A stretch of DNA of 64,000 bases from Pyrinomonadaceae bacterium. Lineage in GTDB: Bacteria; Acidobacteriota; Blastocatellia; Pyrinomonadales; Pyrinomonadaceae. Shown here in pieces: positions 35,670 to 45,833 of this stretch. Positions within the stretch are counted from its first letter, which is position 1; each line of letters opens with the position of its first letter. The notes under the pieces were generated by a model, which saw only the letters and a list, made by a program, of their open reading frames with translations, had not been told where the DNA came from and did no database searches. The translations under genes were made by a program, and so were the position numbers. The stretch spans positions 1,565-65,564 of the forward strand of contig DATBSH010000320.1 of NCBI GenBank assembly GCA_036559885.1, in the 5' to 3' direction.

Positions 35670-36324
35670 GAAGCAGATCCACCGATTTCCACAGATTACA
35701 CAGATTAATTCTTAACGTGCAAAGGTGGACTTTGGTACTCCCATGATTCCACTGCTGGGGCCTTTGCGGTAATCTAAGCGCCACAATCCCACCTTTCACC
35801 TAATCTCGAAGGAAACTTGAGTATGAATATCCTCACAGAAAACGATCCTAGAACTTATGCGATCATCGGAGCGGCGATGGAGGTTCATCGTCAACTCGGC
35901 TGCGGCTTTTTGGAACCCATCTACCAAGAGGCCTTCGCAGTTGAGTTGGTGAATCGGCAAATACCGTTTACATCTGAGTTGAGATTTCGGATTAGTTACA
36001 AGCAACGACAACTTGAAAAATACTATCGACCAGATTTCGTCTGTTTTGACTCAGTTATTGTCGAGCTCAAGGCTGTTGCGCGGCTAACACGACTTGAGGA
36101 GTCCCAAATCATCAACTATTTGAAAATTACCGGTTATGGCACGGGACTTCTAATTAACTTTGGTGGTCGTAGTTTGGAGCAGCGACGATTTGTACTTTAA
36201 TCGGTTCGTACATTATCGCATAAGTACTTCATCGTTCGGGCTGTAAGTCGGCGACACAACCACGGATCGCCAGCGGTTTACAACTAATCCGTGTAATCTG
36301 TGGAAATCGGTGGATCTGCTTTGG
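35670..36324 (+). mobile_element. Inverted-repeat-bounded cassette carrying a GxxExxY gene
   Basis: The left end 35670..35711 (GAAGCAGATCCACCGATTTCCACAGATTACACAGATTAATTC) and the right end 36284..36324 are reverse complements, with 31 consecutive identical nt by eye. Confidence 0.55.
35817..36200 (+). CDS. GxxExxY family protein (PD-(D/E)XK-superfamily-like)
   Basis: Signature GCGFLEPIY (G-x-x-E-x-x-Y). [15 protein letters not shown] resembles a D...E-x-K nuclease core. 127 aa. Confidence 0.85.
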
Positions 36325-42729: not shown

Positions 42730-42969
42730 ATGTCTTCCGCATCGCCTGATATTGATAGCACATTGGAACCGGCAGAAACGCCGGAAGTAGATTCTAAGTA
42801 CAGGTTAATTATTTTAGCCGCGAAGAGAAGTAAACAATTACAACGTGGTGCCCAACCCCGCATTGAAATCGATCCGCAAAAACACAAGCCAACCAGAATC
42901 GCGCTGGAGGAAGTGATACGCGGGCGTGTTCAGTTCAGTATAAGAGACAGCGAGAATCCCGCAGAATAA
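42730..42969 (+). CDS. rpoZ: DNA-directed RNA polymerase subunit omega
   Basis: YRLIILAAKRSKQLQRGAQP core, 79 aa, in conserved yicC-gmk-rpoZ synteny. Confidence 0.85.
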   Translation: MSSASPDIDSTLEPAETPEVDSKYRLIILAAKRSKQLQRGAQPRIEIDPQKHKPTRIALEEVIRGRVQFSIRDSENPAE

Positions 42970-42982
42970 GGCGTTTTGTAAT

Positions 42983-43118
42983 TGGGATGTGGGGATCTGA
43001 GATCTGGGATCTGCGATCTGAAGCGCCGATTCGTGATCTCAGATCCCAGATCACAGATCCCACATCTCAGATCTCAGATCTCAGATCTCACATCTCAGAT
43101 CCCACATCTTAGATCTCA
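42983..43118. repeat. Inverted arrays of a GATC-containing heptamer (TGAGATC x5, then GATCTCA x12)
   Basis: Left array 42983..43018, 14-nt spacer, right array 43035..43118. It fills the spacer between convergent rpoZ and ETF-QO. Confidence 0.85.
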
Positions 43119-43127
43119 GACACACAT

Positions 43128-44837
43128 TCACATCCCCTTATAATCCGGTCCACCGCCACCCTCCGGCGTCACCCAATTGATGATCTGATAAGGGTCCATG
43201 ATGTCGCAGGTCTTACAGTGAACGCAGTTTGAAAAATTGATCTGCAGTTTCCGCTGACCATCGCTCCCATCTTCGACCATCTCATACACGGCTGCCGGGC
43301 AGAAACGTTGACACGGGTTACCAAATTCTTCCGCACAACGCGTCGAACAGATGTTTAAGTCGAGCACGTGCAGGTGTGCGGGCTGATCTTCGTCATGGCC
43401 CACAGCGGCATGGTAAACATCGGTAACCTTGTTGAAGGTGAGTTTTCCATCAAATCGTAAACCGTCGTAGCGTTGCCCCAGATCATCTCCACGATATCCA
43501 TACTCCGACAGCTTCTTCATCTCACGATGACCCGGATGAGCTTTATCGCGATCGACGATTCCCCATGCACGACCTCCAGTTACAAACTGCAAACCGGTAT
43601 TGAAAAGACCGAGCCATCGACCGTGCTTGAAGCCGGCATGAAAGTTTCGCACCTTTTTTAATTCAGGAATGATCCAGCTGTCGTTGACTAATTGCTCGTA
43701 GCGCTTTAGCTGCTTTGCGGAAAAGTCCTTTGCTATTAGCGCCTCAAAGATTGCTTCGGCCGCGAGCATGCCGCTCTTGATTGCGGAGTGAATGCCTTTC
43801 AAACGCTGTGAATTGAGAAAGCCTGCGCAATCACCGACGAGTAGGACCCCGTCAGCATAAGTTTGTGGTATCGCAAAATATCCACCGGCCGCAATTGTCT
43901 TGGCTCCGTATCGAATCATCTTTCCGCCGTCCAATAGCCGTTGAATGAAGGGGTGCGTTTTGTATCGTTGGAATTCCGCGTGCGGATCAAGCAAAGGGTC
44001 TTTGTAGTCCAGCCCTGTCACGTATCCGATATTGAGGATTCGATTCTGCATCCCATAGATCCATCCACCACCATACGTGTGAGCGTCGGATGGAAATCCG
44101 AGCGTATGAGTGACTCGACCCGCTGGGTATCGATCGTCTGGCAGTTCCCATAGTTCCTTCACTCCGATGCTGTAGACCTGAGGTTCGCGACCTTCGTCGA
44201 GACCGAGCCGTTCAACCAACTGCTTCGTTAGCGACCCCCGTGGTCCTTCGCCCAGCACGGTTACCTTCGCGTGCAGATCAACGCCCGGCTCGTAATTAGG
44301 TTTCGGTTTACCTTCCTTGTTGATCCCTTTATCGCCCGTGCGAACTCCAATGACGCGATCATCATCATCGTAGAGCAAGTCAGCGCCAGGAAACTCTGGA
44401 AATACGTTCACGCCTGCCTCTTCGCATTTTTCTCCCAACCAAGCGGTGAGTCGATTAAGCGAAACGATGTAGTAACCCTGGTTCTTCAAGGGCGGTGGTG
44501 TGATTGGAGAACGAATCGCGCGCCTGGGAGTCAGGTAGAGGAAGTAATCCTCTTTAACTGGCGATTCAAGTGGCGCGCCTTGTTCAACGAAATCAGGAAT
44601 CAACTCGCGTAACGCGCGGGGATCCATGACGGCCCCGGAGAGAATATGAGAACCAATAGTTGCGCCTTTTTCGATGACGGCGATCTCGACATCTCCAAGA
44701 GGTTCGCCTCGCTTCTCGCCTTTGCTGACTGACTCATTGTGCTGTTCTATAAGGCGTGTCAAATGTAGCGCACCGCTCAGATTCGCGGGACCACCGCCTA
44801 CAAATACGACATCAAACTCTAAAGTTTCACGTTCCAT
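43128..44837 (-). CDS. Electron-transfer flavoprotein:ubiquinone oxidoreductase (ETF-QO)
   Basis: N-terminal FAD fold FDVVFVGGGPANLSGA. C-terminal 4Fe-4S cluster Cys pattern CQRFCPAAVYE...CVHCKTCDI. Confidence 0.9.
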   Translation of the reverse strand: MERETLEFDVVFVGGGPANLSGALHLTRLIEQHNESVSKGEKRGEPLGDVEIAVIEKGATIGSHILSGAVMDPRALRELIPDFVEQGAPLESPVKEDYFLYLTPRRAIRSPITPPPLKNQGYYIVSLNRLTAWLGEKCEEAGVNVFPEFPGADLLYDDDDRVIGVRTGDKGINKEGKPKPNYEPGVDLHAKVTVLGEGPRGSLTKQLVERLGLDEGREPQVYSIGVKELWELPDDRYPAGRVTHTLGFPSDAHTYGGGWIYGMQNRILNIGYVTGLDYKDPLLDPHAEFQRYKTHPFIQRLLDGGKMIRYGAKTIAAGGYFAIPQTYADGVLLVGDCAGFLNSQRLKGIHSAIKSGMLAAEAIFEALIAKDFSAKQLKRYEQLVNDSWIIPELKKVRNFHAGFKHGRWLGLFNTGLQFVTGGRAWGIVDRDKAHPGHREMKKLSEYGYRGDDLGQRYDGLRFDGKLTFNKVTDVYHAAVGHDEDQPAHLHVLDLNICSTRCAEEFGNPCQRFCPAAVYEMVEDGSDGQRKLQINFSNCVHCKTCDIMDPYQIINWVTPEGGGGPDYKGM

Positions 44838-45012: not shown

Positions 45013-45833
45013 AACGGCTGTGCCGCCTGATGTGAGGCATGGCTCCGCCTTGCCGTAAGGCGCTTCTTCAATTGCGGGCTACGCCCCAGGTTCGGGCTCT
45101 GCCCGCTCAAAGCTAGAACCCGCGCCGCCAGTGAATCGCATCCTTATCGATCATCAACGGCTCATTCTCTAGCGGACATCCTGCCCAGATTCGCGCACTA
45201 CTCCATCGATAATCTGTCGCTCGTTGCACTAAGCCAGCACGGACTGGATTCTGATGGATGTAGTTCAGCTTCTGCATAAACAGCTTCTCACTGATAATCG
45301 GAAAAACATTTCTTTCCCTTTGCCATAGCGAGTATTTGTAATTCTTGTCTCGCTGTTGATGCTCAAGCTTCTTCAATGAGCTCGCGTAATTGTTTTCCTT
45401 CAAATAGTCAATAACCCTTCGCGCAGTCAGGCCCTTCAGCACCCGCAGAAGATCAGACGTCGTCGACGGTCGATTAGTAAGCAGGTGTAGATGATCAAGC
45501 ATTACTACATACGCAAAGAGAAGAAAACCTGCCGTTTTTCGCGCCTCATCAATTGCGCCGCACAGTAATTCTCGCATCTGATCGGTGCGAAAAACATTGA
45601 GCCTGTGGTTCGTTACAAGCGTGATGTAAAGGACGGGTGAATCGTGAGAAATGAGGAAACGGTGAGTCATGAGGGAACTCTCCTTTTTGTGTGAGTGATT
45701 AAACCTGCTAGCAAAGTTACGCTGATCTCGATGAGGAGTAAAGGGCGAGCCCGAACCTAGGGCGTAGCCCAAAAATTACGAGCGAGCTAACGGCAAGGCA
45801 GAGCCATGCCTCACAACAGGCGGCTTAGCCGTT
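45013..45833 (-). mobile_element. RAYT/IS200-like Y1 transposase unit bounded by two-module imperfect inverted repeats
   Basis: Module 1 at 45013..45056 is the near reverse complement of 45789..45833. Module 2 at 45076..45104 (GGGCTACGCCCCAGGTTCGGGCTCTGCCC) is the near reverse complement of 45743..45770. Confidence 0.6.
45113..45670 (-). CDS. REP-associated tyrosine transposase-like protein (Y1 HUH, IS200/IS605 Transposase_17 family)
   Basis: ORF 45113..45772, using the ATG at 45670 (MTHRF...) with AAAGGAGAG upstream. HUH motif DHLHLL; C-terminal YIHQNPVRAGLV...YRWSS. Confidence 0.8.
   Translation of the reverse strand: MTHRFLISHDSPVLYITLVTNHRLNVFRTDQMRELLCGAIDEARKTAGFLLFAYVVMLDHLHLLTNRPSTTSDLLRVLKGLTARRVIDYLKENNYASSLKKLEHQQRDKNYKYSLWQRERNVFPIISEKLFMQKLNYIHQNPVRAGLVQRATDYRWSSARIWAGCPLENEPLMIDKDAIHWRRGF

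Follow-up and report, generated by a model that had tools for sequence, protein, structure and literature searches.

A GATC-type heptamer palindrome between rpoZ and the ETF-QO gene is one member of a fast-changing class of hairpins in a Pyrinomonadaceae genome

The rpoZ/ETF-QO spacer and its hairpin

The window analysed is a stretch of 64,000 nt from the genome of a Pyrinomonadaceae bacterium (assembly GCA_036559885.1, contig DATBSH010000320.1). The gene rpoZ, encoding RNA polymerase omega (79 aa), lies at 42730-42969 on the plus strand (Pfam RNA_pol_Rpb6, E 1.6e-14). ETF-ubiquinone oxidoreductase (ETF-QO, 569 aa) is encoded at 43128-44837 on the minus strand (Pfam Fer4_ETF_QO 3.3e-41, ETFQO_UQ-bd 2.8e-34). 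These Pfam matches confirm the convergent gene pair named in an earlier note on this DNA. The genes yicC and gmk precede the pair. At 87-92% identity, the ETF-QO protein matches those of Pyrinomonadaceae (Acidobacteriota, Blastocatellia) MAGs.

The spacer between the two genes contains two opposed arrays of a heptamer rich in GATC. The left, G-richer arm (42983-43020) starts 13 nt past the rpoZ stop codon and was called by TRF with period 7, 5.3 copies of TGGGATC and a score of 46. Its units are TGGGATG, TGGGGATC, TGAGATC, TGGGATC and TGCGATC, followed by TG. A loop of 14 nt (43021-43034) separates it from the right arm (43035-43120), which was called with period 7, 12.3 copies of GATCTCA and a score of 116 and ends 7 nt from the ETF-QO stop codon. 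The right arm also has a 28-nt period (3.0 copies, 89% matches, TRF score 131). It is made of three 28-nt blocks of four units each, with a mutual identity of 23-25/28. The earlier note had described opposed arrays of TG(A/G/C)GATC and GATC(T/C/A)CA with a 14-nt spacer and had counted 13 GATC sites; both descriptions hold, with exactly 13 sites within 42983-43118. Several unrelated heptamer families within the one window, which it had also reported, were seen by TRF. A 53-aa ORF with a TTG start (42982-43143, plus strand) spans both arrays and is probably a translation of the repeat and not a gene.

The minimum free energy (MFE) fold pairs 42984-43021 with 43031-43068. The stem comprises 33 Watson-Crick and two G-U pairs, 35 in all. 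Both ends of the loop lengthen the stem, leaving 7 nt unpaired. The paired part of the right arm (43035-43068) consists of the first 28-nt block and CATCTC of the second. Folding analysis left the seven surplus right-arm units (43069-43120) with no left-arm partner; they fold weakly on themselves via an AGATCT palindrome or pair in alternative registers. The folding energy of the spacer is -80 kcal/mol on the plus strand and -88 kcal/mol on the minus strand, with z-scores of -8.0 and -7.8, respectively, and none of 200 shuffles was equally stable.

The left arm can be paired in at least three registers. Removal of the first 28-nt block from the right arm still gave a hairpin of -58.5 kcal/mol, and removal of the first two gave one of -43 kcal/mol. 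Since long hairpins persist after these deletions, several pairing registers are possible, as the earlier note had held of the complementary arms. One change in the stem is compensated. The outermost left unit has GATG (42986-42989) and the facing part of the right arm has CATC (43063-43066), so that G42989 pairs with C43063. A known RNA family for the hairpin was sought and rejected, as the whole window gave no Rfam match at gathering thresholds.

Heptamer arrays across the genome

The assembly comprises 6.18 Mb in 487 contigs with a GC content of 52%. Seven is its commonest tandem-repeat period, with 809 TRF rows compared to 589 for the next period. The period-7 rows total 26 kb and fall into 163 unit families, of which the GATC family (AGATCTC, AGATCTG and near variants) accounts for 43 arrays. 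The earlier note had proposed a genome-wide catalogue of 7-nt arrays and would have been refuted by their absence elsewhere in the genome; once overlaps were merged the catalogue comprised 781 arrays, an outcome in the note's favour. The arrays are STRR-like in build, a likeness that the same note had drawn, and they occur in many unrelated unit families.

Most of these arrays are arms of hairpins. Opposed pairs within 200 nt numbered 184 and took up 366 of the 781 arrays, while neighbours in the same orientation numbered five. A further 119 arrays had a nearby inverted partner of at least 12 nt, compared to seven in a reversed-sequence control. Together these make about 62% of the arrays hairpin arms. 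Nested hairpins are frequent, with GATC arrays inside CTTTGGN arms and AAATCCG arms inside the arms of the 10-mer CCACAGATT.

Positions were assigned with our own crude ORF calls, in which 84% of the genome is coding and small genes, rpoZ included, are missed. On these calls the opposed pairs were 90% non-coding. They lay in 98 same-strand spacers, 29 convergent spacers and 18 divergent spacers, and 20 were at contig ends. Pair density per kb between divergent genes was half of that elsewhere. In same-strand spacers the hairpin started a median of 7.5 nt past the upstream stop codon; 67 hairpins were closer to the stop and 30 were closer to the next start. The entire spacer was occupied by the hairpin in 40 of the 98 cases, and the downstream gene must then be transcribed through it. 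Canonical terminators are rare in this genome, being found at 132 of 4416 gene ends compared to 87 in an antisense control.

The arms have a fixed polarity. Arm order was constant in the four largest families (43/43, 34/35, 30/30 and 21/21). In 26 of 30 families (p=6e-5) G exceeded C in the 5' arm, and the G-richer arm comes first on both strands. Arms of different copies of one family mismatch by 3-6%. The loops behave differently from the arms. Among 128 loops of at least 25 nt, 97 were singletons, and three subfamilies share loops. The possibility that loops are filler copied from elsewhere was rejected, as 89 of the 128 had no other match in the genome. Co-variation of the two arms, compared within and between copies, was clear only for AAATGAC (6% vs 11% mismatch). 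It was slight for AAATCCG and absent for AAGGATG and AATCGGC, whose arms are nearly identical across copies and so leave none to be seen. Near-identical arms around unique loops point to dispersal or concerted evolution, and independent local slippage alone is insufficient to account for them, which counts against slipped growth in place as the whole explanation.

Contig ends carry 20 of the 184 opposed pairs and 52 single arrays. Many of the 487 breaks in the assembly are therefore probably due to the heptamer repeats.

The period-7 excess was also found in 80 related Pyrinomonadaceae loci and was patchy in other Blastocatellia families. In the latter, opposed heptamer arrays were seen in G020, G021, G023 and G025 (loci L094, L095, L097, L107 and L110), with units such as AGAAAGT/ACTTTCT, GGGTTCC/AACCC.. 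and AAGGCAA/CTTTTGC. Samples of 20-40 kb from G019, G026, G028 and G029 had no opposed heptamer arrays. The heptamer-repeat palindromes form a lineage-wide class whose polarity is fixed and which strongly favours the bases immediately past stop codons. The hairpin in the rpoZ/ETF-QO spacer is one ordinary, fast-changing member of the several hundred in its genome.

The same spacer in other species

The convergent rpoZ/ETF-QO pair is kept in about 130 genome and metagenome loci and the sequence of its spacer is variable. Many species have a spacer of 1-17 nt. In many others the spacer holds an opposed array of another unit, for example GGATGAA, ATTGCCG, CAGTAGN, GTGATAN, CTCTGTG or ACGCAAAG. 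GATC-family units, in numbers from 3 to 11, occupy the spacer of about seven species (L018, L023, L082, L121, L127, L171). A specific preference of GATC arrays for the rpoZ/ETF-QO spacer was considered and rejected, as about seven of about 130 species is not clearly above an array share of about 5%. Since many relatives have only 1-10 nt between the two genes, a hairpin at this spacer is dispensable.

In a tree built on ETF-QO the source genome groups with L082, L113 and L001. L082 is the closest relative (ETF-QO 92% identical) and has a 44-nt spacer with about five GATC-family units. Its sister L113 has a 96-nt spacer with a GGATGAA hairpin, and L001 has a spacer of 2 nt. These three spacers all differ, so the spacer turns over on a shorter scale than protein divergence of a few percent. 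The other GATC-bearing spacers are scattered over the tree, and the family shows five changes for five rows and no clustering. A contig of the same species was sought in genome and metagenome collections and none was found; the best matches had 91-92% protein identity. The comparison of array copy number that the earlier note had suggested for strains could be made between species, where it gave about 17 units here, about five in L082 and 3-11 in the others; the copy number is thus not identical, which again favours the note. The class turns over very quickly between species.

Two near-identical strains, L132 and L135, have a hairpin of the ACGCAAAG type that differs by a coordinated replacement in both arms, with GGAAG on one and CTTCC on the other, and pairing is kept. 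In a more distant clade, whose ETF-QO is 61-65% identical, bidirectional terminators of the classical type occupy this spacer. The loci of this clade (L178, L180, L183, L186, L187, L190 and L191) each have an A-tract, a GC hairpin and a T-tract.

Origin and role of the hairpin

The explanation held with moderate confidence is that the spacer carries a foldback microsatellite which would have grown in place and may act as a 3'-end RNA structure. A GATC-type heptamer palindrome may have been seeded in the rpoZ/ETF-QO spacer, either in an ancestor shared with L082 or soon after. It would have expanded in place through slipped-strand replication. The four-unit block of the right arm would then have been triplicated, as the likeness of the three 28-nt blocks suggests, and such a triplication would explain why 12 units face five. 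Complementarity of the paired part would have been maintained, to which the compensated GATG/CATC change points. In each of the two convergent transcripts that run into the spacer, a stem of about 35 bp is predicted to form shortly past the stop codon. It could serve as a barrier to 3' exonucleases and/or as a site for RNase III or pausing, as REP/BIME hairpins do in enterobacteria. The hairpin may act as the mRNA 3' stabiliser that the earlier note had offered. The bidirectional terminators of the distant clade, and the near absence of terminators from the source genome, are evidence that a hairpin belongs at this site.

The same hairpin could be a neutral or selfish palindromic microsatellite at the DNA level, with no RNA-level or protein-binding function for the cell. 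Such an element would originate and grow via slippage and hairpin-templated repair and would accumulate where it does least harm, past stops and not in promoters. Its turnover would fit this account. Sister species carry different unit families, many relatives have 1-10 nt in place of a hairpin, and the GATC family needs as many changes on the ETF-QO tree as it has rows. Arrays also break the assembly, as the 20 pairs at contig ends indicate. The authors who described heptamer arrays in Xanthomonas likewise found no role for them (PMC4692102). Selection at the RNA level was looked for as an excess of sense-strand G-U among the stem mismatches and was rejected, with 45 G:T compared to 58 A:C (p=0.24); the stem mismatches thus do not suggest that the RNA fold is under selection. 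Given the missing G-U excess and the many relatives that are hairpin-free here, a neutral or selfish origin keeps a real chance, although we do not expect it to be the answer. It sits poorly with the very tight median start of 7.5 nt past stop codons. The G-rich-arm-first rule across families is not predicted by it either, though a bias of insertion or tolerance could yield the rule. Compensated changes that keep pairing, both at G42989-C43063 and between L132 and L135, also speak against it, as does the presence of hairpins where the distant clade has a true terminator.

Growth in place is itself questioned by a further reading, in which the hairpin was inserted as an empty mobile cassette and the rpoZ/ETF-QO copy is a derivative that has no cargo. 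The full forms would carry one small gene, encoding either a four-helix-bundle protein of the 23S-rRNA-IVS type (PF05635) or a GxxExxY PD-(D/E)XK protein (PF13366). Each of the eight testable genes of these two kinds in the genome is enclosed by inverted repeats, 20-42 nt long, that consist of short tandem units. One is in the window (35670-36324; G000:C320:37235-37885), and the others are on contigs C39, C473, C249, C299, C352, C368 and C191 of the same assembly (G000). One of the eight has GGATGAA arms in the usual polarity, and a GATC-family array adjoins a ninth gene. When random small genes were scored alike, 6 of 400 were bracketed, and four of these six were PF05635/PF13366 genes themselves. 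The near-identity of arms between copies and their fixed polarity would also suit a mobile element. Against this, 97 of 128 loops of the short hairpins are singletons, and the loops are unlike the cargo genes. The proposal that they are remnants of cargo genes was rejected, as blastn and tblastx searches inside the loops matched arrays only. The idea of emptied cassettes is therefore speculative. There is no linked transposase, and the asymmetry of the arms and the 28-nt blocks in this spacer resemble local slippage. An inserted cassette is thus an unlikely source of the hairpin. It is equally doubtful, for the class as a whole, that heptamer hairpins are empty cassettes whose arms are recognised or processed by Avd-like four-helix-bundle or GxxExxY proteins. 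If it were true, STRR-type repeats, rRNA intervening sequences and orphan genes would form one class of elements.

A REP-associated tyrosine transposase (RAYT) is encoded about 2 kb from the spacer, at 45113-45772 on the minus strand (NF047646, 94.9 bits). Its flanks (window 45013-45833) form a two-module imperfect inverted repeat and are not heptamers. The genome has nine Y1_Tnp hits, and none of the nine had a heptamer array within 1.5 kb. A link between the hairpins and a REPIN/RAYT system was rejected, as the RAYT flanks differ and no Y1 gene is near heptamer arrays.

GATC sites, terminators and quadruplexes

Under the foldback microsatellite that we favour, the GATC sites would come with the repeat unit and would not be what is selected. 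The earlier note had offered a methylation or protein-binding platform as one role, in which the 13 Dam-type sites would be the selected feature. Nowhere else in the genome are GATC sites so densely clustered: the spacer has 13 in 136 nt, where the genome-wide 6.3 per kb would predict about 0.9, and the next densest cluster has 11. GATC is also over-represented genome-wide, with an observed/expected ratio of 1.62 compared to 0.23 for CTAG and 0.30 for TATA. A Dam-family adenine methylase is encoded at G000:C223:3666-4586 (L193:367-1287; TIGR00571, 292 bits) and has the GATC-specific M.DpnII as its nearest match (2dpm, E 2.5e-79). C27 carries another, weaker Dam-family gene. As an M.DpnII-like methylase is encoded, the GATC sites of the spacer may well be methylated. 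Selection for the sites is another matter. GATC is present in only 58% of the units across the 43 arrays of the GATC family, and about 160 other heptamer families of the same build have no GATC. Relatives have other units, or nothing, in this spacer. At one place in the stem both facing arms have lost GATC (GATG/CATC), which shows that pairing and not the site is kept. The GATC richness is therefore probably a by-product of the repeat unit. These observations weaken the proposed platform and make it very improbable.

The stable hairpin between convergent genes suggested a canonical bidirectional intrinsic terminator, and the left-arm TGGGATC resembles the quadruplex-forming GGGNATC repeat of Xanthomonas. 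On neither strand is the hairpin followed by a U-tract, the tails being CACACATTCA on the plus strand and AATTACAAAA on the minus strand. A consensus terminator scan had no match in the spacer, and over 20 kb it gave 24 sites compared to 21.8 expected. At least six T in the next 10 nt were found for 7% of the heptamer hairpins genome-wide. The missing U-tract and the 40 of 98 hairpins that fill a whole same-strand spacer show that the hairpin is not a canonical terminator, and the register-tolerant terminator of the earlier note is weakened accordingly. For a quadruplex the plus strand offers three G3 tracts, and neither strand has a four-tract motif with loops of at most 7 nt. A terminator of the canonical kind or a quadruplex element can thus be set aside as scarcely credible.

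Significance

The class takes up much of the intergenic DNA of Blastocatellia. Neither the function of heptamer repeats nor the preference for 7 nt has been explained since they were described in cyanobacteria (1990) and Xanthomonas (2015). The Pyrinomonadaceae make hundreds of species-level comparisons of one spacer available. The spacer also provides a natural experiment on whether heptamer hairpins take the place of terminators in a nearly terminator-less lineage, because it holds a terminator in the distant clade and unrelated heptamer hairpins or nothing elsewhere. For annotation, the arrays account for assembly breaks and for spurious ORFs such as 42982-43143.

Comparison with known systems

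Foldback (FB) transposons of Drosophila and other eukaryotes have long inverted terminal arms of short tandem repeats, and the arms are unequal in length and vary between copies. The central loop varies as well; it may be missing or may carry a gene. FB transposons are eukaryotic, kilobase-sized and have known or presumed transposases, so the likeness to the hairpins described here is one of architecture only. MITEs are defined by a conserved internal sequence between terminal inverted repeats and by a target-site duplication; for the heptamer hairpins, 97 of 128 internal sequences were singletons and three subfamilies had loops in common.

REP/BIME elements of proteobacteria are extragenic palindromes found in hundreds of copies at gene 3' ends and inside operons. 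REP doublets form long hairpins with less conserved spacers, and at the RNA level they shield the upstream mRNA from 3' exonucleases. The heptamer hairpins are similar in being extragenic palindromes at gene 3' ends, and by analogy they may protect mRNA. Unlike them, REPs are not tandem repeats, and REPINs flank their cognate RAYT while the heptamer hairpins do not.

In cyanobacteria, STRR arrays can supply the two strands of one helix, as in RNase P RNA and nif intergenic regions. STRR in the strict sense belong to heterocystous cyanobacteria (Calothrix, Anabaena, Nostoc), and the host here is a member of the Pyrinomonadaceae. Heptamer repeats of cyanobacteria (STRR), Beggiatoaceae and Bacteroidetes are intergenic and strain-variable, with several families per genome (PMC4679880). 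In Beggiatoaceae the TAACTGA repeats lie immediately before start codons and run in direct orientation, apart from one inverted case (PMC4679880). The arrays described here differ in being mostly inverted pairs right past stop codons.

The literature searched contained no publication on heptamer repeats in Acidobacteria. The repeat type itself is already described in Xanthomonas and cyanobacteria, and paired arrays outside cyanobacteria have been published (PMC4692102). Rehm et al. (2015) reported GGGAATC in Xanthomonas campestris and X. axonopodis and GGGGA(C/T)T in Nostoc PCC 7120 (PMC4692102). The Xanthomonas heptamers occur genome-wide in 2-26 copies and are mostly intergenic, with 70-75 convergent array pairs per genome that are able to form stem-loops (PMC4692102). 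Their G-rich strand lies within 50 bp past stop codons, they are under-represented between divergent ORFs, and their length varies strongly between related species (PMC4692102). The authors found no function for them (PMC4692102).

The spacer hairpin has the tandem units, the inverted pair and the position and polarity of paired heptamer arrays of this type. It has three G3 tracts on the plus strand; a GGGNATC quadruplex of the kind described by Rehm et al. has four or more. As in Xanthomonas and Nostoc, tandem 7-nt units form convergent pairs that are intergenic, placed past stops and rare between divergent ORFs, and the TGGGATC unit is close to the Xanthomonas GGGNATC. Unlike in Xanthomonas, the host phylum is Acidobacteriota (Blastocatellia), there are about 160 unit families in place of one dominant G-rich unit, and most families, the spacer copy included, cannot form quadruplexes. 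The share of arrays that are paired, about 62%, is also far higher here than in Xanthomonas.
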